Shown piece after piece: positions 7,711 to 27,796 of a stretch of DNA of 64,000 nt. This stretch comes from a virus. Lineage: Duplodnaviria > Caudoviricetes. The notes under the pieces were generated by a model. It did not search any database. It was not told the DNA's origin and saw only the letters and a program-made list of their open reading frames with translations. The stretch is from the IMG/VR virus record IMGVR_UViG_3300028886_000045; one strand, given 5' to 3'. Made by a program: the position numbers and the translations under genes. Within the stretch, counting starts at the first letter, position 1, and each line of letters begins with the position of its first letter.

Positions 7711-8142
7711 TTAGAATATAAATTTTTGGTGCAAATGCTTTGCTATTGACGGATGGGCATCAACCGTCATGTTTTCGTGCTTATAGTGCTCCAATATGCT
7801 TTGGATTTCCGCAAAAGGCGTATCACCATCCATTGAATAGAAACGCACGCTGTTACGCCCACCGTGTCGCTTATCTACCATTACAATCCATGACTTATCC
7901 CTTACATGGTGGTCAATCGCCACAATTTCGTTTTCAGAAAGTAAGTCAATCAACCTTCCATGTATCTTTAGGGTCTTTTCTACCCCATGCAAGGTTAAAT
8001 TCGCGTTATCTAACTTACCTTTCGTGGCTTGCACTTCATTCACCAAATTCTGCAAGGACTTCATTTCGTCTGCCATGCACCAACTTAGGAACTTATACGC
8101 CTTCCGTTTAGCATAACGCCTTAGAATTTCTTTTCCATTCAT
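7711..8142 (-). CDS. Hypothetical protein
   Basis: 143-aa ORF in operon. Confidence 0.7.
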   Translation of the reverse strand: MNGKEILRRYAKRKAYKFLSWCMADEMKSLQNLVNEVQATKGKLDNANLTLHGVEKTLKIHGRLIDLLSENEIVAIDHHVRDKSWIVMVDKRHGGRNSVRFYSMDGDTPFAEIQSILEHYKHENMTVDAHPSIAKHLHQKFIF

Positions 8143-9549: not shown

Positions 9550-10242
9550 TTAGAACAAAGACAACTGCCTTGCATCTTCACGCAATCGCCTTTCTGCTAT
9601 CTTACATAATTTTTCTTTCTTTTCGCTACCTATATACACACGCCCACCGCCTAATTGCTGAACTGCTAACGCTGTTGTACCCCCACCCATGAAGGGGTCG
9701 TAAACAACCCCATTTTGAGGACACGTTGAAAGTATCATACTCCGTACCATTGCAAGGGGCAAAGACGAATAGCCGTTTTTGTCCATTCGCACATCCCATA
9801 TATTCGACTTGTACGCGCTATTTTCCTTTCGGAAATATGGATAGTCACCCTTGTATAGCCAATATATGTATTCTGTTATAGGCGTATAATTATCATCTGC
9901 CTTTTCCAACGTGTTAGCCTTATCCCATACAATTATTTGATGTAACGGAAAGTCATAAACCCACGTTGGATGTATAAGCCTTTGAAACTTCATGTTATCC
10001 TTGTGGTTGTAATACATAGAACCATTCGGTTTCAACACGCGCATACATTCTTTGATAAATCGCCTTTGCCACGCCTCGTATTCCGTTGGCGTTATGCTAT
10101 CCTTTGGCGATTCTGAATACATCACGAACCTATACCATCCCTTGTTTGTCGGTGGTGACGCAATAATAAGGTCTATGGATTCATTCGCCATTCTTGACAA
10201 AGTTTCCATACAATCCTCATTATAAATCTTGTTTATTTCCAT
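9550..10242 (-). CDS. Beta-class DNA amino-methyltransferase (N6A/N4C), atypical SPPT motif, C-terminal QLSLF
   Basis: IYNEDC...SPPT...DPFMGGGTTA. Confidence 0.85.
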   Translation of the reverse strand: MEINKIYNEDCMETLSRMANESIDLIIASPPTNKGWYRFVMYSESPKDSITPTEYEAWQRRFIKECMRVLKPNGSMYYNHKDNMKFQRLIHPTWVYDFPLHQIIVWDKANTLEKADDNYTPITEYIYWLYKGDYPYFRKENSAYKSNIWDVRMDKNGYSSLPLAMVRSMILSTCPQNGVVYDPFMGGGTTALAVQQLGGGRVYIGSEKKEKLCKIAERRLREDARQLSLF

Positions 10243-10243
10243 A

Positions 10244-10966
10244 TCAGAATATCGTTTGTAACGAATTTTCGTATTCTATTCTTTTCATTGCGATTTTGTG
10301 GTAATCCTCATTCAATTCAAAGCCTATGAAATGTCGTTTTTCCTTCATGCACGCAATAGCGGTCGTACCACTACCCATGAAAGGGTCTAAAATCAAGTCA
10401 CCCTCATTCGTGCTATTTCGGATAAACCTTTGCATCAGTTCCAAAGGCTTGATAGAAGGATGCCCCCAAAGTTTCTTATCCTTATGGTTGATATACCCCA
10501 CCTCGTAGGTCTTTGCATCTTCATAATCCTTTGGATGCGTCTTACTGCCCTTGTGGAAAAACAGACAATACTCCGTGTCGCTTAGGTACTTGTTATAATA
10601 GGTAGGCAAAGCATTCTTCTTATGCCAACAGATAATTTCATACTTGCATTTCATTTCGCTTACATATATTCTGAAATAGTCTGCTATCTGTGCTTTGTTA
10701 CACCATATATAAGCGTTTATCTTTCCACCTTGCAACCTTTTGACCTCTTGGGCAAAGGCTTCCATATTGTAGCCATCGCGCAAATTGGCTACATCTAACT
10801 GCTTTAGCGAATCATTCAGTTTCTTAACCTTGTTTACGCTACCACCCCCATGATGCTTTTCAATGACATACGGTGGGTCTGTCACTATGCAGTCAATACT
10901 TCCGCTTTCGATTTGCTTCATTCCCTCAAAGCAATCCGCGTTATATATCCTATCAATTTCCAACAT
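10244..10966 (-). CDS. Beta-class DNA amino-methyltransferase, C-terminal LQTIF
   Basis: TDPPY, HPSIKP, DPFMGSGTT, GFELN. Confidence 0.95.
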   Translation of the reverse strand: MLEIDRIYNADCFEGMKQIESGSIDCIVTDPPYVIEKHHGGGSVNKVKKLNDSLKQLDVANLRDGYNMEAFAQEVKRLQGGKINAYIWCNKAQIADYFRIYVSEMKCKYEIICWHKKNALPTYYNKYLSDTEYCLFFHKGSKTHPKDYEDAKTYEVGYINHKDKKLWGHPSIKPLELMQRFIRNSTNEGDLILDPFMGSGTTAIACMKEKRHFIGFELNEDYHKIAMKRIEYENSLQTIF

Positions 10967-10968
10967 AA

Positions 10969-11715
10969 TTAAAACAAACTTAGTTGTGACCTTTCGGCTT
11001 TAATTCTTTGATATGCTTTTTTGTAGAACTTCTCGTTTAGTTCAAATCCGACAAAATGCCTATTTTCCTTCATACACGCAATCGCAGTAGAACCGCTCCC
11101 CATAAAAGGGTCTAAAATCGTATCGCCTTTGTCTGTGTTAAGTAGAACGAACTCACGGATAATCTGCACGGGTTTTTCCGTTGGATGGATTTTGGCTTTT
11201 CCGTTAATAGGCGCAACCTTCTTGACCCTACTATAAAGTTCATTGTTTGATACGCGCCTTAGTGCCGTGCCATAGTCGTAAACCCTTACTATGTATTCCA
11301 AATTCTGACTAAAACGATTATGGTTAATGATACTTAGCGGTTTCTCCCATACAAGAATACTGAACATATAGCCGTTATTCTCTGCCCACATTGCATAGTA
11401 GGGAACTTGCGTCTCCGAACAAAACATATAGGCATTCATAATCTTCATTTTCGGCTCTATCGCCTTCATCAGCCTATCTATGTGCTCCCCATCAAAGTCG
11501 CTCATATCGCCTATCATATCCCCCTCGTAGTTATACAATTCGGAATTTGAAAACCTACTTTCCGTATTGCATTGCTTACGCTGTGAATATGGCTTGCCGG
11601 GGGACTTCTTATGCCAATACGGTGGGTCGGTAATCACGCAATCAATACTTTTATCCGCGATTTCCTTTAACCCCTCCATACAATCCATATTGTATATGTT
11701 ATCCAATTCTAACAT
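10969..11715 (-). CDS. Beta-class DNA amino-methyltransferase, C-terminal QLSLF
   Basis: TDPPY, HPTEKP, DPFMGSGST. Confidence 0.95.
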   Translation of the reverse strand: MLELDNIYNMDCMEGLKEIADKSIDCVITDPPYWHKKSPGKPYSQRKQCNTESRFSNSELYNYEGDMIGDMSDFDGEHIDRLMKAIEPKMKIMNAYMFCSETQVPYYAMWAENNGYMFSILVWEKPLSIINHNRFSQNLEYIVRVYDYGTALRRVSNNELYSRVKKVAPINGKAKIHPTEKPVQIIREFVLLNTDKGDTILDPFMGSGSTAIACMKENRHFVGFELNEKFYKKAYQRIKAERSQLSLF

Positions 11716-11718
11716 AGT

Positions 11719-12492
11719 CTAAAATAGTGTCGGTTGTGATTTCTCCATTTCAATCCTTTCATTAGCCTTTTCCCAATACTTTGTATTCAGTTCAAAGCCT
11801 AAGAAATGTCGCTTTTCCTTCATGCACGCTATTGCAGTAGTGCCACTCCCCATGCAATTATCCAAAACCAAGTCACCCTCGTTTGAATAGGTTCGTACCA
11901 AATACCTAATCAAGTCCAAAGGCTTTTGTGTAGGATGCCATGCACCCTTATCCCTTGCAAAGCGTAACACGCTCTTTGGGTATCTGTCACCATTGTTTTC
12001 CGTTGTAACGGATTTTTGATTGTTAGGGTCGTAGTTACTGCTTGCACTACCTTGTTTGCAAGTATAAGGCTTTCCCTCTGTTTTCTGTGGGTTGTAAACC
12101 ATAGCGTTCATGGGATTCTTTACAAAGCATGACGCGCTTTTGCTGAACACCAAAATATTTTCGTGGCTTTTCATTGGCGCAAAGTTGGCGTTCAAATGCC
12201 CCGTCCCTTGCTCTTTCTCCCATATCCACTCATATTTAAGCATTGGCAGATTTGACGCGCCCAAAACCTTATCGAAAGGCGTTTGTGCAAACAACACAAT
12301 AGCACCCCTTTTCTTGATTATGCGGTTATATTGCGCCCAAAGTTCATCCAAGGGAATAATACTATCCCATTGGTTTTTTGTCGTGCCAAATGGCAAATCA
12401 CAGATAATGCAGTCCACTACACCGTCCGCGATTTCATTCATACCCACCAAACAATCCTCATTGTATATCTTATTCAGTTCCAAATAATCCAT
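11719..12492 (-). CDS. Beta-class DNA amino-methyltransferase, C-terminal QPTLF
   Basis: CDLPF, HPTQKP, DNCMGSGTT. Confidence 0.95.
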   Translation of the reverse strand: MDYLELNKIYNEDCLVGMNEIADGVVDCIICDLPFGTTKNQWDSIIPLDELWAQYNRIIKKRGAIVLFAQTPFDKVLGASNLPMLKYEWIWEKEQGTGHLNANFAPMKSHENILVFSKSASCFVKNPMNAMVYNPQKTEGKPYTCKQGSASSNYDPNNQKSVTTENNGDRYPKSVLRFARDKGAWHPTQKPLDLIRYLVRTYSNEGDLVLDNCMGSGTTAIACMKEKRHFLGFELNTKYWEKANERIEMEKSQPTLF

Positions 12493-12495
12493 AGC

Positions 12496-12636
12496 CTAAA
12501 AATGATGAAAGTCCTTAAAAATATGTATCAGTCTTAAAAAGTAGAAACCGCAAACCATCAAAACAATCCCAATCAATCCGAATATGATGCCAACAGTCCA
12601 AAGTACCCACATGGGTACGAAAAAAGTAAATTCCAT
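12496..12636 (-). CDS. Small single-pass membrane protein (46 aa)
   Basis: Hand-translated MEFTFFVPMWVLWTVGIIFGLIGIVLMVCGFYFLRLIHIFKDFHHF; exactly fills the gap. Confidence 0.7.
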   Translation of the reverse strand: MEFTFFVPMWVLWTVGIIFGLIGIVLMVCGFYFLRLIHIFKDFHHF

Positions 12637-12650
12637 ATCTTTTATAGTTG

Positions 12651-13355
12651 TTAGAAAAGACTTTGTTCAATCCATTGTGCCTCTTTCGGCTTTATCGTTT
12701 TCGTGGCTTCAACAAATCTTTCGTTAGTTTCCTTGTTTATTATTTCCCTACCCTTTTGCTCACCTATAACATAATTCTTGTTATCACCTTTCGGATATGG
12801 CATTATAGGGTATTTCAGACACTTCATTAATCGCTTTCGTGTCCTTTTATCGCAACAGAAATAAACGTATCGGTATTTGGAAGAACGCACCACCCTTTTA
12901 TCCTTTTCCGTATCGTTATAGTGTCTTGAATGCTTACCTTCTTCCACATACTTATCCGTTCTTTCCTTTGTCTGCCCCGTGTATATGAAATTCGTTGCTT
13001 GATACACATAGCCGTGGTGATTCATGCCACTATCGGCATACGAAACAATCACTATGTTTTCAGCCTTCAGCATTCGCAATACTTCACCGACAAAATAGGA
13101 TGCCGTATTGCGTGGCATACCACCCTCAACATAAAGGCGGTTAAGTTCATAGACAATAGGGGAATATTCTTTACCCAAAAGCCCCTCGCAAAGTGAATTA
13201 GACGCTGGCTTGCCTATCGTCAGAACCCCCACCAACCTTTGCCCATCGAACAATCCAAAGGCAAATGTTATGCTTGGTATTCTGTGGGCATAGTGGTAAT
13301 ACTTAATATCGTAGTATGCCATTTTGGGGTTTATCCTACTTACTTTGTATTCCAT
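12651..13355 (-). CDS. mom: Mom-family DNA adenine-modification enzyme (GNAT fold), C-terminal EQSLF
   Basis: HY..R, LVGV, ELNRL...MPRN.AS, SYAD...H.GYVYQATNF, YRYVYF, PYPK, all matching Mu Mom motifs. Confidence 0.85.
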   Translation of the reverse strand: MEYKVSRINPKMAYYDIKYYHYAHRIPSITFAFGLFDGQRLVGVLTIGKPASNSLCEGLLGKEYSPIVYELNRLYVEGGMPRNTASYFVGEVLRMLKAENIVIVSYADSGMNHHGYVYQATNFIYTGQTKERTDKYVEEGKHSRHYNDTEKDKRVVRSSKYRYVYFCCDKRTRKRLMKCLKYPIMPYPKGDNKNYVIGEQKGREIINKETNERFVEATKTIKPKEAQWIEQSLF

Positions 13356-14143
13356 CAGAACAAACTCAACTGCTTATACTTCTTTTTCTGTATCACCACC
13401 TTTCGGCTATCGCCCTCCCTTTGCAGATAACCGCAACAAATCGGACAACTATACCAATCACCAAAGCGAGGGTCGTAGATTCTTTTCGTGCCACCGCAAC
13501 AATCCAAAGGAACTTGCGCCTTCTGTGTTGGGTGTGGCTGTTCTGCATACAACACCTTTAGGCTCTTGTCCAACAGATAGCAATACCTATGTTTTCTTGT
13601 CCTATTCACCCACACGCCACGCCTTACCTTTGTATCGCTCCTCGTCTTTCCGTTTTCCGCATCGTAGAAATCCGTCTTTGCATCCGTCAATCCATAATAC
13701 TTGAAATTGCAGACTTGGTAAATACTGCCTATGTGCCGTGACGCATCCGCTAACGTGATAACCGCCTTAATGCCGTGCTTTACCAACATTTTCATGCTGT
13801 TTCCCAAAAGGAAAGATGTTGCATTCGTACCATTAAGGCACGGTAACATACAAAGACGCGATAATTCAAGAACCGTTTGGTCTGAGTTTTCAAGTCCAAA
13901 CCACCCCTTTAGTGCTAACGCCCCATTTGGGTTACTATAAGTCGCTACACCTACACAGACATCACCCTCGTCCCCCTTGTAGTACAACCCATATCCGTAC
14001 ACACAGAAAAACCGCGCCTCGCCCAAATAGTGATACTGCCTAACGAAATTGTAGCAAGTAACCTTATCTATTTCCCTAATATGGAAAATCTTCTTTGCCT
14101 TGATTTTTCTATCCTTAAAATCTTGCAGTTCTTTAATTTCCAT
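13355..14143 (-). CDS. Second Mom-like enzyme with C-terminal Cys cluster and QLSLF
   Basis: YHYLG, ELSRLC, LAD..RHIGSIYQVCNF, KHRYCY; DCCGG...CPICC. Confidence 0.8.
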   Translation of the reverse strand: MEIKELQDFKDRKIKAKKIFHIREIDKVTCYNFVRQYHYLGEARFFCVYGYGLYYKGDEGDVCVGVATYSNPNGALALKGWFGLENSDQTVLELSRLCMLPCLNGTNATSFLLGNSMKMLVKHGIKAVITLADASRHIGSIYQVCNFKYYGLTDAKTDFYDAENGKTRSDTKVRRGVWVNRTRKHRYCYLLDKSLKVLYAEQPHPTQKAQVPLDCCGGTKRIYDPRFGDWYSCPICCGYLQREGDSRKVVIQKKKYKQLSLF

Positions 14144-14144
14144 A

Positions 14145-14330
14145 TTATTCTATCCTTATGTAAAACCCTTTGATTTCTAACCCTTGGTAGGAACTATCTG
14201 TATCATTCCATGCGTTTACAAATTCTTCCATTGTCATAGCCGAGTCTGCATTATCCTTTAGTTCGGATTTGTCTAACGCACCAATCATATCCCTATCCCA
14301 ATCACGAACATTGAAAAAATATACTAACAT
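14145..14330 (-). CDS. Small acidic hypothetical protein
   Basis: 61 aa, abuts the mom-like gene. Confidence 0.65.
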   Translation of the reverse strand: MLVYFFNVRDWDRDMIGALDKSELKDNADSAMTMEEFVNAWNDTDSSYQGLEIKGFYIRIE

Positions 14331-14351
14331 ATCCTATCTCCTTTCTTTAGC

Positions 14352-14401
14352 AAAAAACCGCCCACCAAGCCCTTTGAAAAAAAGGCAAAACGGTGGACGG
14401 G
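14352..14401 (-). terminator. Extended hairpin with U-tract
   Basis: CCGTCCACC...GGTGGGCGG followed by TTTTT on the minus strand. Confidence 0.5.
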
Positions 14402-14430
14402 AAAAAGATGAAATGAAAATAAAAACTTTG

Positions 14431-14474
14431 TGGGGAAAAGGGGATTTGAACCCCTAACAAAAAACCTTATCCCC
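14431..14474 (-). ncRNA. tRNA-like mini element (acceptor stem plus T arm, no D or anticodon arm)
   Basis: GGGGATA-12 nt-AGGGG TTCAAAT CCCCT-TTTCCCC-A. Confidence 0.5.
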
Positions 14475-14479
14475 ATAGT

Positions 14480-14510
14480 AAAAAAGGCGCACCGATTAAC
14501 GGCACGCCCC
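14480..14510 (-). terminator. Rho-independent terminator
   Basis: GGCGTGCCG-TTAAT-CGGTGCGCC-TTTTTT. Confidence 0.65.
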
Positions 14511-14541
14511 AAAAACATACATAAAAATGAAAAAGAAAAAC

Positions 14542-14976
14542 TCAAAAGTACATGAGGTTACTATAAAATTCTTCCACATTGATATTCTTCAACGGCATTT
14601 GGAAAAGCACATCTTTAACCCTTTCGTAAAGTTGTTCAAACTCTTCCTCTGACATTTTATCAAAGGCAATAGATTTCGGTGCTTGCAACCATTCTTGTTT
14701 AGCCACGTTATAGATAGGCTCGAACCACCCCGCGGCAATTTCCATTGTCTTTCTGAATGAATCAATGCTATTATTGAAAAACTTACATTGTTCTTCCGTC
14801 ATATACTCCCACGCCAAATTTATCAAGGCGAAATACTTTTTGTGAAATTCGTAGTTTCTGTAAAGTTTCACATCAACATTATAAACCTCACCGATTTTCA
14901 GCCTTTTTTTCTTGTCGTAGTTGTCATCACCATAAGGCACAAAGCCATTTACGGTGTTCATACATTGTATTCGCAT
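14542..14976 (-). CDS. DUF1367 / NinB-like protein
   Basis: RNYEFHKKYFALI..AW...PKSIAFDKMSEEEF..LY; start refined to MRIQCM. Confidence 0.75.
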   Translation of the reverse strand: MRIQCMNTVNGFVPYGDDNYDKKKRLKIGEVYNVDVKLYRNYEFHKKYFALINLAWEYMTEEQCKFFNNSIDSFRKTMEIAAGWFEPIYNVAKQEWLQAPKSIAFDKMSEEEFEQLYERVKDVLFQMPLKNINVEEFYSNLMYF

Positions 14977-14990
14977 AGTCTTACTTTCCG

Positions 14991-15031
14991 AAAAAAAGAA
15001 AAATCCCCACGCGGAAAAACCGCATAGGGAC
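14991..15031 (-). terminator. Rho-independent terminator after ssb
   Basis: TCCCTATGCGG-TTTTT-CCGCGTGGGGA followed by T-rich tract. Confidence 0.7.
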
Positions 15032-15063
15032 TTATTCTTCAACCAACTCAAAGCCGTGTGCCA

Positions 15064-15594
15064 TTAGAAAGGCAATCCACCATTGGGGTCGGGTTGTGGA
15101 AACCCCCCTTGTGGTGCACCTTGTGGGGCATAACCGCCTTGTGGGGCGTAACCGCCTTGTGGCGCACCTTGTGCATAACCGCCTTGTGGCGCACCCTGTG
15201 GGGCATAACCACCCTGCGGAGCATAACCGCCTTGTGGCGCACCTTGTGGGGCGTTCTGTGGCTTTGGTGGAGCAAGGAGTGCAACATCATTTGCAAACAT
15301 ACTGAGGTCTAAATATGCTTGACCGTTGTATAGTCTGCTTTCCGCAATCAAGCCACCGCTAACCAATACCTTTGCGCCCTTTACCAAATATGGCTTCAAG
15401 CCATCCGAATAACGATAAAGGACTGCTACCCACATAGTTTTTTGTACCTTTTCGGTCTGTCCACTTTGTGGATTCTGCTCGTTCTTCTGATAACCAACAC
15501 CAATATTAAACTTAAAGTAACTATTGTTGTTGATTGTTACCACCTCTGCATCTTTGCCGAGGTTTCCGTGTAATGTCGAATTTATTCCGTTCAT
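15064..15594 (-). CDS. ssb: Single-stranded DNA-binding protein
   Basis: GNLGKDA, YL.KG.KVLVSG, low-complexity tail ending LPF. Confidence 0.9.
15105..15255 (-). repeat. Coding tandem repeat (APQG / APQGGY units) in the SSB linker
   Basis: Repeated ccttgtgg(g)gc units. Confidence 0.85.
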
Positions 15595-15617
15595 TCTTTC
15601 TTTTTTTTGAATTGTTA

Positions 15618-16745
15618 TTACTTAGTCTTAAATCTTATGGATTCGCTTACGGTCGCGTCCTTTACATACTTATCGTACATTTCCGCTTGCTCCTCCTTGA
15701 AACGCTTCGAGTCAAATTTCTTTTGAACACCACCCAAAACGCGCGTTACCACCAATTTGTCGGTTTCCCACTTTTTGATGTTATTGTCTTGCATTACTTT
15801 TAGAAAACGGCTTTCAATTTCCTTTTTCAAGGTTTCCGCTTTCTTGATGCTTTCCAAGCATTCAACGATTTGGGTTTCCATCTGACCGAGAACCGCCAAA
15901 GCCTTACCGTCTGCCTTATCCGTAGCCGTAGCCGTAGGCAATGGCACATACTTACAAGCCTCTTGCGCCTTACGCAATTCTGCTATTTCCGCGAATGCAG
16001 ACGCAGAACCCTCCATATCGTTCATATCTTCGCAGAACTTTTGGATTTTGCGCTTTTCGTCAATCTGTGCTTGCAGTTCCAACCAACGCCTATCACACTC
16101 GATTAGTTTTTCAACCTCAGCGCGTGACTTTTCCGCAATATCCTTGATACGCGACTTTCCATAAGTAGGCTTTGGTAGCCAAATACACTTTAGACTTCTG
16201 ACTTTCAAGCCCTTGTTATTCAGTTCAAACAGATATTTGTAAATGGATAACTGCCATGACAAATAATCATCGTCAATCTTTGATGTACCCTTGACATCTA
16301 CAAGGTCTATCGCGCCATCTTCTGACATTACAATATCTATCGCGCTTGCGTGGTTTACATAATCGCTAACCAAATACTCGTTGGCTTCTGTCTGCAAGTT
16401 CGCCTCACGCTTCAAGTGCGTATAATCAGTTACCCTATCTATGATTTCCGTTGCATTCGGCATCATATCGTAAGTGCATCCGTTCTCTATGCGGAAATTC
16501 TCAATTTCCGTATCAAGTTCTGCCTCGTTTGGAATTACGCCCACAATGTCATACTTCTGTATGCCGTGGTGTATCAAATGACCGCGTAGGGCTGCAATTT
16601 CCAAAGTCATCTGACTGATACCATCATACTTGTGCGCGGAAATATGGCGATGCAACATACTTGTTATGCCCGAAAGCAAACGCCCCTCGTATGTGTATGT
16701 GTGCGTGGCATCATCATAGAATACCTTTGATTGTGCTAACTTCAT
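15618..16745 (-). CDS. PD-(D/E)XK exonuclease (recombination partner of Erf)
   Basis: RGHLIH, AIDIV...[14 protein letters not shown]. Confidence 0.8.
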
Positions 16746-17353
16746 TTCTTCGCGTTTTTGATTTTACTACTTTGCGCCTTGACCGCGTTCACAAACTCTT
16801 CAACATTACGCAACAATGCGTAACTGTTCCAAATCTGTACCAACTTATCCTCAGTTGTCGCTTTGCTGATTTCTGCCTTAATGTTTGGTAGGTCTGCCAA
16901 CATCTTTTGGTACGCATCCGCTTGACCTTGCGGTATCTGCTTTTGTGGCTGTTGCTGTCCGTTATTGGTAGAATCGGAATCATCCCCCGTACCATCAATC
17001 AAGAATATACCACACAACGCATACTTACGCGCATAAGACGATGCCGACCCCGTCACTTGACACTCATCCATACCCTTTTTAGTCAAAGGCTCACGCGCCA
17101 ATGCGGTGTTTCTGATTTCGTCTGCCCCATCAGTCAATACAGCCGTGGCGCACAGATAAAATCTTTCGCCAATCTGCTTTATATCGTCTGTGAGATACAA
17201 AACCAAACCCTCTTTTGCCAACAAAGGCTTCGCTTCTACAAGTATATCCTCCGCATTTCGGAAAAAATACTTTCCGAAATCGTTGTATCTACCTTTGCCT
17301 ACATTAAGTTCATTCTGAACCCTTGCGACTTTTTCAATAAACTCCTTGTTCAT
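16742..17353 (-). CDS. erf: Erf-family ssDNA annealing protein
   Basis: QVTGSASSYARKYALCGIFLID..DD.D. Confidence 0.9.
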   Translation of the reverse strand: MNKEFIEKVARVQNELNVGKGRYNDFGKYFFRNAEDILVEAKPLLAKEGLVLYLTDDIKQIGERFYLCATAVLTDGADEIRNTALAREPLTKKGMDECQVTGSASSYARKYALCGIFLIDGTGDDSDSTNNGQQQPQKQIPQGQADAYQKMLADLPNIKAEISKATTEDKLVQIWNSYALLRNVEEFVNAVKAQSSKIKNAKK

Positions 17354-17659
17354 TTCCTTACTTTTTTTTGTATAAAAGGTTTAGAGACGCAATCGCGTTT
17401 CTTTTTTGTTTCAAATTGAATACCCCCCACTTTTCGCATACCATATATATAAGGTCACTATATATATTTTTTTCATTATGGCAGTAAAAAGAATTGCAAC
17501 CCTATCGCGTGGTATCTCCAACTGAGAGGCTTAGTACACTTTATTATTATAATTCAGTCAATTCTTGGTAAACGTGGGTATCATCGAACCTAATCTAACC
17601 CACTTATTTTGTTAAATTGTATGTAAATTTGTGAAAGAACTCAAATTTTTACCTTGTTT

Positions 17660-19752: not shown

Positions 19753-19869
19753 TCTGATAATCAGAAAGTTATACTATTTTTCGGCAGTTTTAGCACAAAC
19801 AAGCCACTACGTTTTTAGGTGTTTTAAGGTGTTATTAGGTAATGGTAATGTGCAAAATTTGTGCGAAAT

Positions 19870-21075
19870 ATGAAAATCAAAACTTATGTTGATACAAGGA
19901 AACCTACCAATCAAGGTTTGTTCCCTGTGCTTATCTCCGTCAATCGTGACGGATTCAGATTCTTTGTCAATACGGGGATTTACACCGCTACCAAGTTTGA
20001 AGGTAGGGAGTTTCCCAAATCTGACCCCAACCATAAAGTAAAGACAAATGCCTTGAATAGATTACTACTGCAAGTGGAAGAATACGCGATTAGCCACCTT
20101 TCAGAAAACAATAACGCTTTTAGGCATGGGATGCGTCTTTTTCTTGTAGGAAAAGCAACGGAAAGAAAAGGCAAAAGGCTTTACGGATATGTTGAGGATT
20201 ACGCGGAAACCATAACCAAGCAATCCACGAAAAGGATATACAAAGTAACTATCGCTAAGATAAAAGAATTTGATAAGGATGCCACATTGGATATTACCCC
20301 ACAATGGCTAACGGATTTCGAGGAGTACTTCACACAGAAAAAAGGTATGTCTGTAAACGGCATTGGCATACATCTAAGGAATATCCGCACCGTTATCAAC
20401 CAACACAGAGAGGAGTTGTCTGTGCCATATCCTTTCAAGTCCTATATTATTAAAGAGGTGCGCGTGCCTATCAGAAACCTTTCCATTGAACAACTGAAGG
20501 CATTACGCGATTACCCTTGTGAAGAATGGCAAACGGAATATAGGGATTTGTTCATGCTTTCGTTCTATCTGTGTGGGGTAAACGCAGGGGACTTGCTTTT
20601 GTGTAAATCCCTAACTAATGGTCGTTTCGTATTTACGAGAAGAAAGACTAACAAGAAAGGCAAAAGGGTACAGACATACATTGATATTCCCATTTGCCCC
20701 CAAGCGCAAGCCATAATCGACAAATACAAAGGCGAAAACTACTTGCTAAACCCATTGGATAGATACAAGTCTTACAATGACTATTTGCACCATTGGAATG
20801 ACGGATTACGGAAAATTGGTGAGGTTCACTACGAAAAAGATAAGGTAGGCAGAATGAGAAAAAAGGTTTACGAGCCTTTGTTCGGTGATTTCAGACTTAC
20901 TACTAATGTAGCGCGTGACACTTTCGCATCCATATCCGCGTCTTTGGGCATTCCAAGGGAACATACTGCTATGTGCCTCGGTCATTCTTGGTGCGATGTG
21001 ACGGATTATTACATACACTACGAAAGGGAGGTTATTGATTCAGTCGTTAGAAAGGTTGTGAATGCACTACAATAA
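19870..21075 (+). CDS. int: Tyrosine integrase (Bacteroidota type)
   Basis: Arm-binding N-terminus, LRNIRTVIN, FMLSFYLCGVN..DL, VARDTFAS, LGHS, VTDYY. Confidence 0.92.
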   Translation: MKIKTYVDTRKPTNQGLFPVLISVNRDGFRFFVNTGIYTATKFEGREFPKSDPNHKVKTNALNRLLLQVEEYAISHLSENNNAFRHGMRLFLVGKATERKGKRLYGYVEDYAETITKQSTKRIYKVTIAKIKEFDKDATLDITPQWLTDFEEYFTQKKGMSVNGIGIHLRNIRTVINQHREELSVPYPFKSYIIKEVRVPIRNLSIEQLKALRDYPCEEWQTEYRDLFMLSFYLCGVNAGDLLLCKSLTNGRFVFTRRKTNKKGKRVQTYIDIPICPQAQAIIDKYKGENYLLNPLDRYKSYNDYLHHWNDGLRKIGEVHYEKDKVGRMRKKVYEPLFGDFRLTTNVARDTFASISASLGIPREHTAMCLGHSWCDVTDYYIHYEREVIDSVVRKVVNALQ

Positions 21076-21139: not shown

Positions 21140-22021
21140 TTATGTAGTTTTCCCTAATTCTGACGGAATCCGTATGTAAGGGGAATCCGTCAATATGAAA
21201 TACTCCCCCCAATATCGGCTTTTCTGACTCGGCATTTGCCAAGCCACAATATCAGTTTCCGCGCTCTTTTCTGTTATGGTAGGATGAAACACCTTTGCCC
21301 ATCGAAATCTACTCGCCATAGGTTGAACGCGATACGCACACCCCATTCGCCCCATTTTGTCGTAGATAACAAACTCGCCTAACTGCTTATCGTTTCCTTC
21401 TTCCATACACTTATCGCGTTCATAGCCAAAGGCTTTGTCTTCGCGTATCTTTTCTATCTGCATGAAATCTTCGGGCATTCTGCCCTTGATACACGGCAAT
21501 ATATCCCCCTTTAGAACGCTATCGGCATAGGCTTCCGTATCATCTAAGGCATTTGTCACACCGATATACAAATGTGTTATACCTTTTTCTTTCCACCAAA
21601 TATGTGCGCCCTTTTCACTCTTGATAGGTGTAAATTTCATCGTGTCCAAATTCAACCAATACGTTTCATATGGCTCTCTTTCCGACAATAAGGTTTCCAA
21701 TTTGCTAAAAGCATCCACGACATCCTTTGCCGTACCATTTTTCCCCATGATATGCCTCAAAACCTTATCCTTGATTTGCTCTAAGGTCATATCCGTGGGA
21801 ACTTGCAAAATATTGTACCCTTCCATGTTTAACACGCTTATGTCAAGGTCTGAAAGCGGTGTTATCCATCGCCACTCACAGAAAATTTCTTTTCCGTCCT
21901 TAATAGTCTGTACCAAAAAGCACACCCTACCCTCCTCTTCTATCGCGTAACGCTTTGCGTCTATGTAGTTCACAAAGCCATAGTGATACTTTTGGTTGTT
22001 TAATATGATTTCTTTAAGCAT
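21140..22021 (-). CDS. Hypothetical protein
   Basis: 293-aa ORF. Confidence 0.75.
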   Translation of the reverse strand: MLKEIILNNQKYHYGFVNYIDAKRYAIEEEGRVCFLVQTIKDGKEIFCEWRWITPLSDLDISVLNMEGYNILQVPTDMTLEQIKDKVLRHIMGKNGTAKDVVDAFSKLETLLSEREPYETYWLNLDTMKFTPIKSEKGAHIWWKEKGITHLYIGVTNALDDTEAYADSVLKGDILPCIKGRMPEDFMQIEKIREDKAFGYERDKCMEEGNDKQLGEFVIYDKMGRMGCAYRVQPMASRFRWAKVFHPTITEKSAETDIVAWQMPSQKSRYWGEYFILTDSPYIRIPSELGKTT

Positions 22022-22049
22022 AGTCGTAAAATTCTAAAAGGTGGCTCTC

Positions 22050-22280
22050 TTATCTGAGAGCCTCCTTGATTTCTTCCAAATGGTTCAACACTTTTAATAT
22101 TGATTCGGTCACGCTTGCATTTGTCGGTTCGTCTATCACACCACGGCTCAAATTCAAGTCGTTAATGTATGTTAGAACTGATACACCCTTTTCGATTGCG
22201 TCAATGTTTTCGGCTATATGGTGAAGAATATTGTCTTTCGTGTAGCCATCTGTGACGATACCTTTTCTAATATCATTCAT
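22050..22280 (-). CDS. Hypothetical protein
   Basis: 76 aa, overlapping start. Confidence 0.7.
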   Translation of the reverse strand: MNDIRKGIVTDGYTKDNILHHIAENIDAIEKGVSVLTYINDLNLSRGVIDEPTNASVTESILKVLNHLEEIKEALR

Positions 22281-22482
22281 CGTCTTCTACTGAATGGTTG
22301 CACTTATCAATATACTCTTGTGAAACGCGCAAAAGGTGGTTGTAATCGCCTTCTTGCGCTTTCGCCTTATACTCACCCACAAGGTGCGCTAAACACGCTT
22401 TGACCATACATTTTGAAACGTGTCCGATAACTGCGTTAGCGTTTCCATCTACACCCACTAAAGAAAATCTTTTGTTACTCAT
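22273..22482 (-). CDS. Conserved small phage protein
   Basis: LVGVDGNA.AVIG.V...GDYNHLL motif. Confidence 0.8.
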   Translation of the reverse strand: MSNKRFSLVGVDGNANAVIGHVSKCMVKACLAHLVGEYKAKAQEGDYNHLLRVSQEYIDKCNHSVEDDE

Positions 22483-22500
22483 TTTTCTTGTTGTTTTTGG

Positions 22501-22917
22501 TTATTTAACTACATATACTTTATAAACACACTTGCGTCCGCAATCCCATGCGTCCCTTATCTTTCCGTCCACGACCGCACAGATATGATGCGCCAAACGA
22601 AGGATATAAACCCCCTTTGGATGGCTTAAAGCAAAGTCCTTTGCAGTCATTCGCTTTTGTCCTTTTACGACCTTTACGCTTTGGGATTTATACCCCATTT
22701 GCGCAAACACTTTCTCATACACCTCTTGACTATTCGGCATAGAATAAGCCTCACGCGCCATTTTTGAAAGGTTGTCGAAAGACTCCAACCACGTTTTATT
22801 TGATGCAATAGCAAAGGCGCGTATGACACAATCGCCTTTCGTACACTTCTTTCCTTCTGTTGGATTCGGTTGGGTAAATTCGTAATAATCTACACCTTTA
22901 TTTATGGTTTTTGCCAT
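22501..22917 (-). CDS. Conserved phage protein (GDCVIRA ... HICAVVDG ... DAWD)
   Basis: Recurrent phage motif with a Cys/His/Asp pattern. Confidence 0.8.
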   Translation of the reverse strand: MAKTINKGVDYYEFTQPNPTEGKKCTKGDCVIRAFAIASNKTWLESFDNLSKMAREAYSMPNSQEVYEKVFAQMGYKSQSVKVVKGQKRMTAKDFALSHPKGVYILRLAHHICAVVDGKIRDAWDCGRKCVYKVYVVK

Positions 22918-22928
22918 AGTTCTATCTG

Positions 22929-23432
22929 TTAAAAGTTGATTTCTTTCTCGTCCGTGAAGACGTTGTTTATTGCCACCATAGCACTCCTCAAATCAAGTTG
23001 GCACATAGCGCGTATCAGTCCGTACCTTTCAGAATGTTTTTCCGACATCTTTTCTTTGGCACGGTATGAAGGCGATTCTCCAAACTTCTGCAAGGCTATC
23101 TCGATTTCCGCATATGCCTTTTTCACTTTGTCATAAAGCACATTTTCCTCATCGTCTATGCTTCTAAACATATTATCCGTGGGGTATAGCCAAAACATTT
23201 CCTTTTGGTATGCCAAACTGATTTCTTGCGATGTCAAACCCTTCATCCTATCAATCCATTCACCTTCATCTTTCGTGCAATGTATCATCATAAATGTACT
23301 GCATTTATAGAAAGGACTGAAAGAACGCTCCAAAAACAGATAGTAACTTTCCGTGAAATCGGATTTCCTTATCTTTTTTCTTATTCTATCGGATTTCCTT
23401 TTCTTTTTTCCTATATAAACATCGTATTCCAT
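22929..23432 (-). CDS. Hypothetical protein
   Basis: 167-aa ORF in operon. Confidence 0.7.
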   Translation of the reverse strand: MEYDVYIGKKKRKSDRIRKKIRKSDFTESYYLFLERSFSPFYKCSTFMMIHCTKDEGEWIDRMKGLTSQEISLAYQKEMFWLYPTDNMFRSIDDEENVLYDKVKKAYAEIEIALQKFGESPSYRAKEKMSEKHSERYGLIRAMCQLDLRSAMVAINNVFTDEKEINF

Positions 23433-26318: not shown

Positions 26319-26555
26319 CTAAACTTCGCTTTCGTCTTCTCGTCTATTTCCCTTTATTGCCTTGGTTACGGGGTCTATGCCTAACAATGTCACGGCACAC
26401 CCCGCCAAAAACTCCGTTACATTCGGCATCTGTCGGTTATATATCACGCATACAACGAAACATACAAGTATGACAAAGATAATAGACAAACCGCCCAAAC
26501 GCTTGGAACTGTAACTGCCCTTTTTACCTAAAAAGAAACTCATTAGTTCGTTCAT
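26319..26555 (-). CDS. Putative holin
   Basis: 78 aa, SSKR plus two TM helices, charged C-tail, located at end of tail module. Confidence 0.65.
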   Translation of the reverse strand: MNELMSFFLGKKGSYSSKRLGGLSIIFVILVCFVVCVIYNRQMPNVTEFLAGCAVTLLGIDPVTKAIKGNRREDESEV

Positions 26556-26623
26556 ATCCCTTGACCCTTTCTTTTATATAATACGGTGTTGTCGAACCCC
26601 CTAAAACGACAACACCGCTTTTC

Positions 26624-26803
26624 TTAGACTTCCAACCAATCCAATGCGTCATCCACTTCTTGCTTCGAGTACGTTTCATTCTTAGAATACGAATTTATGC
26701 TATCTGAAGGAAACGTGAAACCCTCAAAGTTAATATCTGACGCATCTATTGCCTTTGCACCGCTTTTCTTGTGCTTTATCTTATCCGAAACAATAAATGC
26801 CAT
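26624..26803 (-). CDS. Small tail-associated protein (59 aa)
   Basis: Hand-translated MAFIVSDKIK...YSKNETYSKQEVD. Confidence 0.6.
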   Translation of the reverse strand: MAFIVSDKIKHKKSGAKAIDASDINFEGFTFPSDSINSYSKNETYSKQEVDDALDWLEV

Positions 26804-26818
26804 AATCTGCCCTCCTAA

Positions 26819-27796
26819 TTAATAAATAAACATTGCTTGTGTTCCCAAACCAGCAGTAGCAGACGCTCTCCATACTACAAACGTAGTTGTCTTGCCTTGT
26901 GCGTTGGTAAATTCGATTTCGTCCACCTTTTCAAATGAATACGTTCCCGCACCATCCGACCATGTAGGCGTACCAAACGACTTAGGACACGCATAATAGA
27001 TGTATTCACCATCATTCGCGGTTACAGACAACTTGCTTGAAGCACTACCCCATGCGTTTGATGTGGCGAAATGCTTTTGATTTGTATTGCCGTTGCTCTG
27101 TGTACCCAATGCGATAATATCCGCGCTTGTAAAGCCGATTTGCTTGCTTGATGTACCCAAATATGCGTAATGCTTGAAATGGATAGATATGGTACTCGCA
27201 TTTACTGAACCGCTTGGTAGTGGGTTGGTTAGGTTGTTTCCGTTGGCATCCTTGGTTGCTTCGTTCTTGTAACTCGTCAAAGCCGTATCACCCTCACCGA
27301 AACTAACCACAGCCTTGTATGTGTACGTTCCTACCTCGGATGGTGTGTCCTCTGTCGGTATAACAGAAGACTGACCGCTTACCGAATACGTTGCGCCCGT
27401 GGCTTCACCTGCCCTATACTTATCCGCTACGCCCGAAACCTTGATTGAACCCCTATTAAACGTATAGCCTAAGTTAGCCAACTTTGGCAAAGTCTTTCCG
27501 ACTTCATAGGTTGTGCCGTTAGTAAAGCCACTTGTAAACACGGTAATTGCGCTTGGTGCTACGATTGTAGGATTGACTTCGGGGAAAAGCAACTTACTTA
27601 TAAGTTCATCCATAGTCATTCCATTCAAAGACTCAGCCGAAACGCCTTGTGCAATACCTCCTACTGCGTGCGGTGTCACCATTTCACCCAAAGCAGTATC
27701 AAAGTGCAAAGCATCCCTAAGTTCCTCAGACGATGCACCGCCACCGCCACCACCACCGCTTGATGGTAGGATATTTCCGCTATGTATCATTGCCAT
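26819..27796 (-). CDS. Tail-fibre-associated / virion protein
   Basis: Gly/Ser/Thr-rich beta content; VGGI..G...L.KLLFP..NPT motif. Confidence 0.7.
   Translation of the reverse strand: MAMIHSGNILPSSGGGGGGGASSEELRDALHFDTALGEMVTPHAVGGIAQGVSAESLNGMTMDELISKLLFPEVNPTIVAPSAITVFTSGFTNGTTYEVGKTLPKLANLGYTFNRGSIKVSGVADKYRAGEATGATYSVSGQSSVIPTEDTPSEVGTYTYKAVVSFGEGDTALTSYKNEATKDANGNNLTNPLPSGSVNASTISIHFKHYAYLGTSSKQIGFTSADIIALGTQSNGNTNQKHFATSNAWGSASSKLSVTANDGEYIYYACPKSFGTPTWSDGAGTYSFEKVDEIEFTNAQGKTTTFVVWRASATAGLGTQAMFIY

Follow-up and report, generated by a model that had tools for sequence, protein, structure and literature searches.

The bacterial sliding clamp, DnaN, is bound through peptides with the consensus QL[S/D]LF (Dalrymple et al. 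2001, as cited in PMC9690074). Tails resembling this consensus are described here on ten DNA-modification enzymes of a tailed phage (Duplodnaviria; Caudoviricetes), which is represented by the 178,667-bp IMG/VR record IMGVR_UViG_3300028886_000045, judged to be 96% complete. The stretch of DNA that was analysed, called the window in the following, is 64,000 nucleotides long and corresponds to the reverse strand of positions 114343-178342 of the record. Six of the ten enzymes, two of the Mom family and four DNA methyltransferases, are encoded side by side in the window.

Bacterial clamp clients such as Pol II, Pol IV, UmuC, MutS and Hda use the same pentapeptide. In Pol II, Pol IV and MutS it is either terminal or preceded by a flexible linker, as it is in the phage proteins. 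However, the carriers in the phage are DNA methyltransferases and Mom-type enzymes, which are not among the clients listed in PMC9690074 and for which clamp binding is predicted from sequence. The sole link between a clamp and a methyltransferase named in a 2022 review of clamps is that of the eukaryotic DNMT1 with PCNA (PMC9690074), to which DNMT1 binds through a PCNA-interacting peptide (PIP) box (Iida et al. 2002, as summarised in PMC9690074). The proposed logic is alike, in that a clamp-docking peptide would couple methylation to replication and target the enzyme to new DNA. In contrast, the clamps (PCNA and DnaN), the docking peptides (PIP box and QLxLF) and the enzyme families are unrelated, and it is a virus that would use the clamp of its host, with up to ten enzymes at once.

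Two phage systems are also related. The clients gp43, gp33 and gp55 of the phage T4 clamp gp45 use C-terminal clamp-binding tails (PMC9690074). The use of hydrophobic C-terminal tails that plug several phage proteins onto one clamp is common to both cases, but T4 has its own clamp and loader, whereas none is detectable in the phage described here and its motif is of the DnaN type. In phage Mu, the clamp-binding protein is MuC, a clamp-dependent late transcription factor that activates the mom promoter, and not Mom itself (bioRxiv 10.1101/2025.01.04.631326). MuC is likewise a phage protein with a clamp-binding motif that exploits host DnaN, and Mom modification is indirectly linked to the clamp in Mu. 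However, the clamp-binding partner in Mu is the activator, whereas in the phage described here the motif is part of the Mom-family enzymes. According to hidden Markov model searches, the catalytic domains are those of Mu Mom (PF25680) and of orphan phage beta- and gamma-class methyltransferases, but the tail is missing from solved methyltransferases and from the closest homologues of the Mom proteins. Full-text literature searches, which were of incomplete coverage, returned no paper in which Mom or a methyltransferase of bacteria or phages is tied to the beta clamp. Neither the motif nor the enzymes are new in themselves; the novelty is that they are combined, that ten enzymes of three families are involved and that Mom is tagged.

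Ten modification enzymes with a common C-terminal tail

The array at positions 9550-14143 of the window consists of six contiguous open reading frames (ORFs) on the minus strand, which encode two Mom-family proteins and four beta-class N6/N4 DNA methyltransferases. The first-pass annotation, which was made from the sequence letters and ORF translations, had listed these six tandem genes and their C-termini, and both are confirmed by the ORFs and by matches to Pfam and PHROGs. All four methyltransferases match N6_N4_Mtase (PF01555, E 1e-29 to 2e-34) and phrog_67. The features of the array are:

13355-14143, minus strand: Mom 1, 262 amino acids, ends KQLSLF (PF25680, E 2e-26; phrog_1384)
13358-13372, minus strand: QLSLF pentapeptide terminating Mom 1, codons CAG TTG AGT TTG TTC
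12651-13355, minus strand: Mom 2, 234 amino acids, ends IEQSLF (PF25680, E 9e-36; phrog_1384, E 2e-68)
12654-12707, minus strand: C-terminal appendage of Mom 2, 18 amino acids, ATKTIKPKEAQWIEQSLF, delimited by alignment and tail census
11719-12492, minus strand: beta-class N6/N4 DNA methyltransferase, 257 amino acids, motif IV DLPF, ends SQPTLF (PF01555)
10969-11715, minus strand: beta-class DNA methyltransferase, 248 amino acids, motif IV DPPY, ends SQLSLF (PF01555)
10244-10966, minus strand: beta-class DNA methyltransferase, 240 amino acids, motif IV DPPY, ends SLQTIF (PF01555)
9550-10242, minus strand: beta-class DNA methyltransferase, 230 amino acids, motif IV SPPT, ends RQLSLF (PF01555)

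The three exact copies of QLSLF use different synonymous codons, exactly as quoted in the first-pass annotation, which had also called two of the six motifs imperfect. Two tails are degenerate, EQSLF and LQTIF; in SLQTIF, the first Gln of the QQTIW/QQTLF type found in homologues is replaced by Leu. The count of six enzymes is correct for the window, but the ORF listing of the whole genome contains four further tailed methyltransferase genes outside it, which brings the set to ten. The additional genes, in coordinates of the complete record, are:

405-1175: PF01555 methyltransferase, ends SQLSLF, adjoins the following gene
1176-1976: PF01555 methyltransferase, ends RQPTLF, adjoins the preceding gene
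26439-27158: PF01555 methyltransferase, ends RQPTLDLF
86635-87531 (L003:1136-2032): PF02384 gamma-class methyltransferase-like protein, ends TQLSLF

None of the seven PF01555 genes and two Mom genes of the genome lacks the tail, and five of the ten tails are exact QLSLF (three in the window and two outside). The earlier observation that the tail occurs on unrelated folds holds and extends to three families (PF25680 Mom, PF01555 and PF02384).

The enrichment of the tail was evaluated for the 339 ORFs of the genome with the strict motif Q..[LIM]F at the C-terminus, and a broader motif was counted as well. The strict motif was observed eight times, whereas 0.086 occurrences are expected from the amino-acid composition. 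It terminates seven of the ten modification enzymes and one of the 329 other ORFs (Fisher p 1e-11); the broader motif is found in 10/10 and 2/329, respectively (p 1e-17). Among the approximately 76 ORFs of the window, the only one besides the six that ends in the motif is an unannotated ORF of 143 amino acids (7711-8142, HQKFIF). It was rejected as a member of the set: no protein family matches it, and the orthologous protein of a sister phage ends HKANYF.

Distribution of the tail in related phages

A set of 50 related viral loci with 1036 unique ORFs was found with an alignment query; the single Mom 2 protein as a query retrieved no related loci from viral contigs. Eleven of the 1036 ORFs end in Q..[LIM]F, namely nine methyltransferases and two Mom proteins, in contrast to none of the 992 other ORFs in the 50 loci. 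The motif is thus not equally common in non-DNA-acting proteins of related phages, a comparison that had been proposed in the first-pass annotation. The sister phage encodes two Mom proteins and four methyltransferases whose tails differ only by Ser or Thr at position 3. Related methyltransferases are located in prophages of Paludibacteraceae, Bacteroidaceae and other Bacteroidales metagenome-assembled genomes, and the hosts of the phage are Bacteroidales. Tails also occur in phages of other bacteria. The protein gp23 of the cultured Faecalibacterium (Firmicutes) phage FP_Taranis has a long linker followed by QLTFF, and a methyltransferase of Lactococcus phage D4351 ends SQISLFDEV. Many homologues have one to four residues beyond the Phe (FD, FDEV, FGDDY), and many phages with a single methyltransferase also keep the tail. 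Cellular enzymes were compared as well. The tail is missing from all 29 of the best-scoring PF01555 methyltransferases sampled in 81 Bacteroidales genomes; these proteins are longer, belong to other subfamilies and are only presumed to be components of restriction-modification systems.

Appended and inherited tails

The first-pass annotation had attributed the repeated tail to selection on the peptide rather than to duplication of DNA. This holds for the Mom proteins, to which the tail was appended, but not for the beta-class paralogues, which inherited it. The 18-residue appendage of Mom 2 is missing in 119 of its 120 nearest homologues, which end approximately 18 residues earlier, and is common only to the sister-phage orthologue P0001 (88% identical). 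In the Mom 1 family, one strict and eight loose tails were found among 150 representatives. Two unrelated viral contigs contain Mom genes that end VQLMLF and IQANLF and are positioned next to tailed methyltransferases; these Mom genes were tailed independently.

In contrast, 84 of the 120 nearest homologues of the 248-residue beta-class enzyme end in Q..[LIM][FW], and 90 have the tail at most four residues from the end. The tail of the beta-class enzymes is therefore ancestral and has been inherited and kept by the paralogues. The codon differences between them read as divergence under purifying selection and not as independent origin. Independent acquisition is evident only for the Mom proteins and across the different methyltransferase families.

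The gamma-class homologues end in QL[T/S/E]L[F/W] in 79 of 120 cases. A linker rich in Lys, Glu and Pro, approximately 10 to 70 residues long, connects their well-conserved core to the motif, and members without the tail stop directly after the core. The tail is a portable peptide module, built like a short linear docking motif that is held by a flexible tether. The first-pass annotation had proposed that the motif would act as a plug-in adaptor for newly acquired enzymes.

Possible relation of the tail to the host sliding clamp

The tails of the homologues were selected only by Gln at position -5, Leu, Ile or Met at position -2 and Phe or Trp at position -1, whereas positions -4 and -3 were left unselected. 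Leu occupies position -4 in 55 of the 84 beta-class and in all 79 gamma-class homologues, and position -3 is variable (Thr, Ser, Lys or Glu). The resulting profile, Q-L-x-L-F/W, reproduces the QL[S/D]LF pattern of clamp-binding peptides at the level of sequence.

The whole record contains no match to DnaN domains 1 or 3, to a Bacteroidales-DnaN profile or to the T4 gp45 family, and no match to PolA, PolB or PolC/DnaE polymerases (families A, B and C), although very divergent proteins could escape both searches. The absence of a phage polymerase and clamp, reported earlier for the window, therefore extends to the whole record, and since neither was detected, the phage is presumably copied by the host replisome. 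The Bacteroidales genomes with related prophage methyltransferases encode ordinary DnaN. The MutS proteins of these Bacteroidales contain QLSFF or QLNFF after a low-complexity linker, approximately 45 residues from the C-terminus, the position at which the known clamp motif of Bacillus subtilis MutS lies.

In the AlphaFold2 model of the gamma-class protein, the last 20 residues form a coil with a lower predicted local distance difference test (pLDDT) value of approximately 70. Solved beta-class methyltransferases align to the phage enzymes only up to the last helix, without the tail. A prediction of the complex of a Bacteroidaceae DnaN with residues 185-234 of Mom 2, which have the most deviant tail, gave a score of 0.07, which is below the threshold, and carries weight neither way.

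Proposed mechanism of clamp-coupled modification

The tails probably bind the clamp and thereby hold the modification enzymes on host DnaN while the phage DNA is replicated. The analysis establishes the motif itself, its restriction to modification enzymes, its modular and appended character, its conservation profile, the lack of a detectable phage clamp or polymerase and the presence of the same motif in host MutS, whereas binding of DnaN, localisation to the fork and protection of the phage are inferred. The interpretation given in the first-pass annotation is supported in part. The host Pol III replisome would copy the phage DNA and leave DnaN rings on the new duplex. Each enzyme is composed of a compact catalytic domain, a short or disordered linker and the putative docking peptide; seven of the ten are beta-class methyltransferases, one resembles gamma-class methyltransferases and the remaining two are Mom-type enzymes, predicted to hypermodify adenine. 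With the docking peptide bound in the hydrophobic cleft of DnaN on DNA, the enzymes would accumulate where phage DNA has just been made and is still unmodified, and they might slide together with the clamp. The tails of the ten enzymes, in a phage with no detectable polymerase or clamp, suggest that the phage DNA is modified right behind the host replication fork, and it would thereby be modified ahead of host restriction.

The chances are about even that clamp-coupled modification is widespread among phages and other mobile elements of several bacterial phyla and has so far gone unrecognised as a general strategy. In such a strategy, the five-residue tag would have been gained repeatedly by beta- and gamma-class methyltransferases, Mom and DUF4942 proteins, and DnaN would serve as a landing pad and possible processivity factor for an anti-restriction arsenal. 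With its ten tagged enzymes, the phage described here would be the extreme case, and it would be the first with tagged Mom-type hypermodification.

Alternative functions of the tail

Several observations weigh against the clamp-tethering mechanism. Three of the ten tails (EQSLF, LQTIF and QPTLDLF) deviate from the consensus, and three tails of the QPTLF type have Pro at position 2. Terminal Trp is common in the homologues and is not known to be part of the classical clamp consensus. The tail is absent from three PAPS-reductase-like/ParB-like gene pairs of the phage, which may also act on DNA, and the fifth methyltransferase of the sister phage lacks the motif and ends EELGMFL. Those host homologues of Y-family polymerases that were inspected end QIGGHKA and have no terminal motif, so that they provide no second positive control beside MutS. 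Furthermore, the motif of the beta-class enzymes comes almost directly after the last helix, and the AlphaFold2 model of the 248-residue enzyme runs this helix into the motif, with reduced pLDDT; an exposed motif is thus supported for Mom 2 and the gamma-class family and only presumed for the beta-class enzymes.

Alternatively, the tail could dock onto a common partner other than the clamp, which could be a phage hub or scaffold, the capsid, resulting in packaging of the enzymes, or a host protease or chaperone that recognises a C-terminal degron and limits enzyme lifetime. The data identify a shared, selected and portable C-terminal peptide without naming its receptor, some of the tails are off the clamp consensus, and the LTGPFxLFGNIG tail on four to six tandem methyltransferases of other phages indicates that such tails need not resemble clamp motifs. 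However, Q-L-x-L-F/W fits the clamp motif even at the unselected position 2, and the same motif is present in host MutS. The occurrence of the tails in phages of Bacteroidales, Faecalibacterium and Lactococcus fits best to a receptor conserved across phyla and favours a universal over a phage-specific one, and the one to four residues following the Phe in many homologues would be odd for a signal that depends on a free carboxylate. A partner other than the clamp is therefore considered unlikely. The tail could instead be a structural, inherited element without any docking function, such as the end of the last helix or a dimer contact, with the matches in the Mom and gamma-class proteins being due to coincidence or small recombination events. 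Its ancestry in the beta-class enzymes, its position directly after the last helix and the prolongation of that helix in the AlphaFold2 model are in line with this explanation. It is nevertheless improbable, because the tail is found on three families, including the non-Rossmann, GNAT-like Mom as an add-on, because 10 to 70 residues separate it from the core of gamma-class proteins, because neither the solved beta-class structures nor the tail-less homologues need it to be complete, and because the eight observed matches compare with 0.086 expected by composition.

The tails might also bind DnaN mainly to occupy or poison the host clamp and displace clients such as MutS, with recruitment of the enzymes being secondary. 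Ten clamp-motif proteins in one genome would suit this purpose, and phage or toxin proteins that act on the clamp cleft are known, namely SocB (PMC9690074) and MuC, the overexpression of which is toxic through the clamp (bioRxiv 10.1101/2025.01.04.631326). However, all carriers of the motif are DNA-modifying enzymes in which the cofactor and catalytic motifs are intact, and no small dedicated protein has it; ten different catalytic domains would be needless for a simple inhibitor; and the tail is kept in many phages with a single methyltransferase. Clamp poisoning as the main function thus appears very improbable.

If the tails bind DnaN, phages have converged on the solution of DNMT1 and PCNA, in which a clamp tag places an epigenetic writer on new DNA. 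Tethering to the clamp would explain how phages that depend on the host replisome win the race of self-protection against restriction, and DNA methyltransferases and Mom enzymes would join the clamp interactome. The tail would provide a simple sequence marker separating orphan methyltransferases of mobile elements from cellular restriction-modification enzymes, and inhibitors of the clamp cleft or clamp variants could change the susceptibility of phages to restriction. The motif is a clean experimental handle, since a deletion of five residues suffices, and FP_Taranis gp23 and the methyltransferase of Lactococcus phage D4351 provide cultured cases.

Enzyme families and catalytic motifs

Mom 1 and Mom 2 score 93.4 and 123.8 bits, respectively, against PF25680 (cut-off 27.1), with profile positions 2-201/202 covered, and share 31% identity. 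By profile, both are full-length members of the Mom family, and their hypermodifying chemistry is predicted from it. Unlike Mu Mom, Mom 1 has a Cys-rich extension that resembles a zinc ribbon (CC...CPICC) and is located between the Mom domain and the tail; it recurs in several homologues as CPxC near the end.

The seven beta-class enzymes score 91-120 bits to PF01555, and their motif IV precedes the S-adenosylmethionine-binding motif I (FxGxG). Their pairwise identities are 27-53%. Motif IV is DPPY in two of the enzymes, DLPY or DLPF in four and SPPT in one, so that five of the seven have an unusual variant; their activity is predicted from family membership. The variety of motif IV suggests several target specificities or chemistries. 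The gamma-class protein scores 42.5 bits to PF02384 (cut-off 20.4), with partial coverage of the profile. Its motif I (CGSG) is conserved, but NETMYPF replaces the NPPY/F expected of gamma-class methyltransferases throughout its family, and the protein is possibly atypical for a methyltransferase or without catalytic activity. The true start of the gene probably lies about 35 codons downstream of the called one.

Genomic context of the array

A recombination and replication module (14542-17353) is positioned directly upstream of the array:

16742-17353, minus strand: Erf
15618-16745, minus strand: RecE-like exonuclease
15064-15594, minus strand: SSB, ends GGLPF
14542-15051, minus strand: NinB

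Since these genes are directly upstream on the same strand, the array belongs to the recombination and replication block. No clamp-type tail is present on Erf, the RecE-like exonuclease, SSB or NinB. The phage SSB has a long repeat linker and a GGLPF end of the usual SSB-tail type, which is kept in the sister phage. There is no annotated nuclease partner next to the array, which is flanked by the recombination genes and unannotated ORFs. As no restriction endonuclease is annotated adjoining the array, the products are regarded as orphan phage enzymes and not as methyltransferases of a restriction-modification system. A megablast search with the array region gave no match among cultured phages.

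Three PAPS-reductase-like genes, each followed by a gene for a protein of approximately 280-310 amino acids, are located at positions 14176-17439 and 21703-23278 of the genome and have no tail. Near them, three small paralogues and a 227-residue protein share the C-terminal tag RRA(S/M)G(S/G)KG.

Other C-terminal tails

Two DUF4942 proteins of Bacteroidales prophages (L009:8995-10539 and L010:9075-10646) end EEQPTLFGEMEVCV and PDGQLVMFGEMATV, respectively. These ends contain a clamp-like motif a few residues from the terminus, in yet another protein family. The prophage with the first of the two genes also encodes a stand-alone MutS-domain-I protein (L009:7674-8294).

Six beta-class methyltransferases from other viral contigs have a different tail, (K/N/D/Q)(L/F)TGPF(H/R/Y)(L/I)(F/Y)GNIG. 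Four of them are encoded in one 215-kb contig:

L053:10001-10747: methyltransferase with the TGPF...GNIG tail
L053:10751-11518: methyltransferase with the TGPF...GNIG tail
L053:17246-18010: methyltransferase with the TGPF...GNIG tail
L053:18014-18700: methyltransferase with the TGPF...GNIG tail
L050:5819-6583: methyltransferase with the TGPF...GNIG tail
L051:4500-5246: methyltransferase with the TGPF...GNIG tail

Possibly, the TGPF...GNIG sequence represents another type of docking tail for methyltransferases encoded in tandem.

The window also contains a gene for a tyrosine integrase (19861-21075, plus strand), which matches phrog_1; Phage_int_SAM_5 is found in the sister phage. The presence of an integrase in this 178-kb phage suggests a temperate lifestyle.

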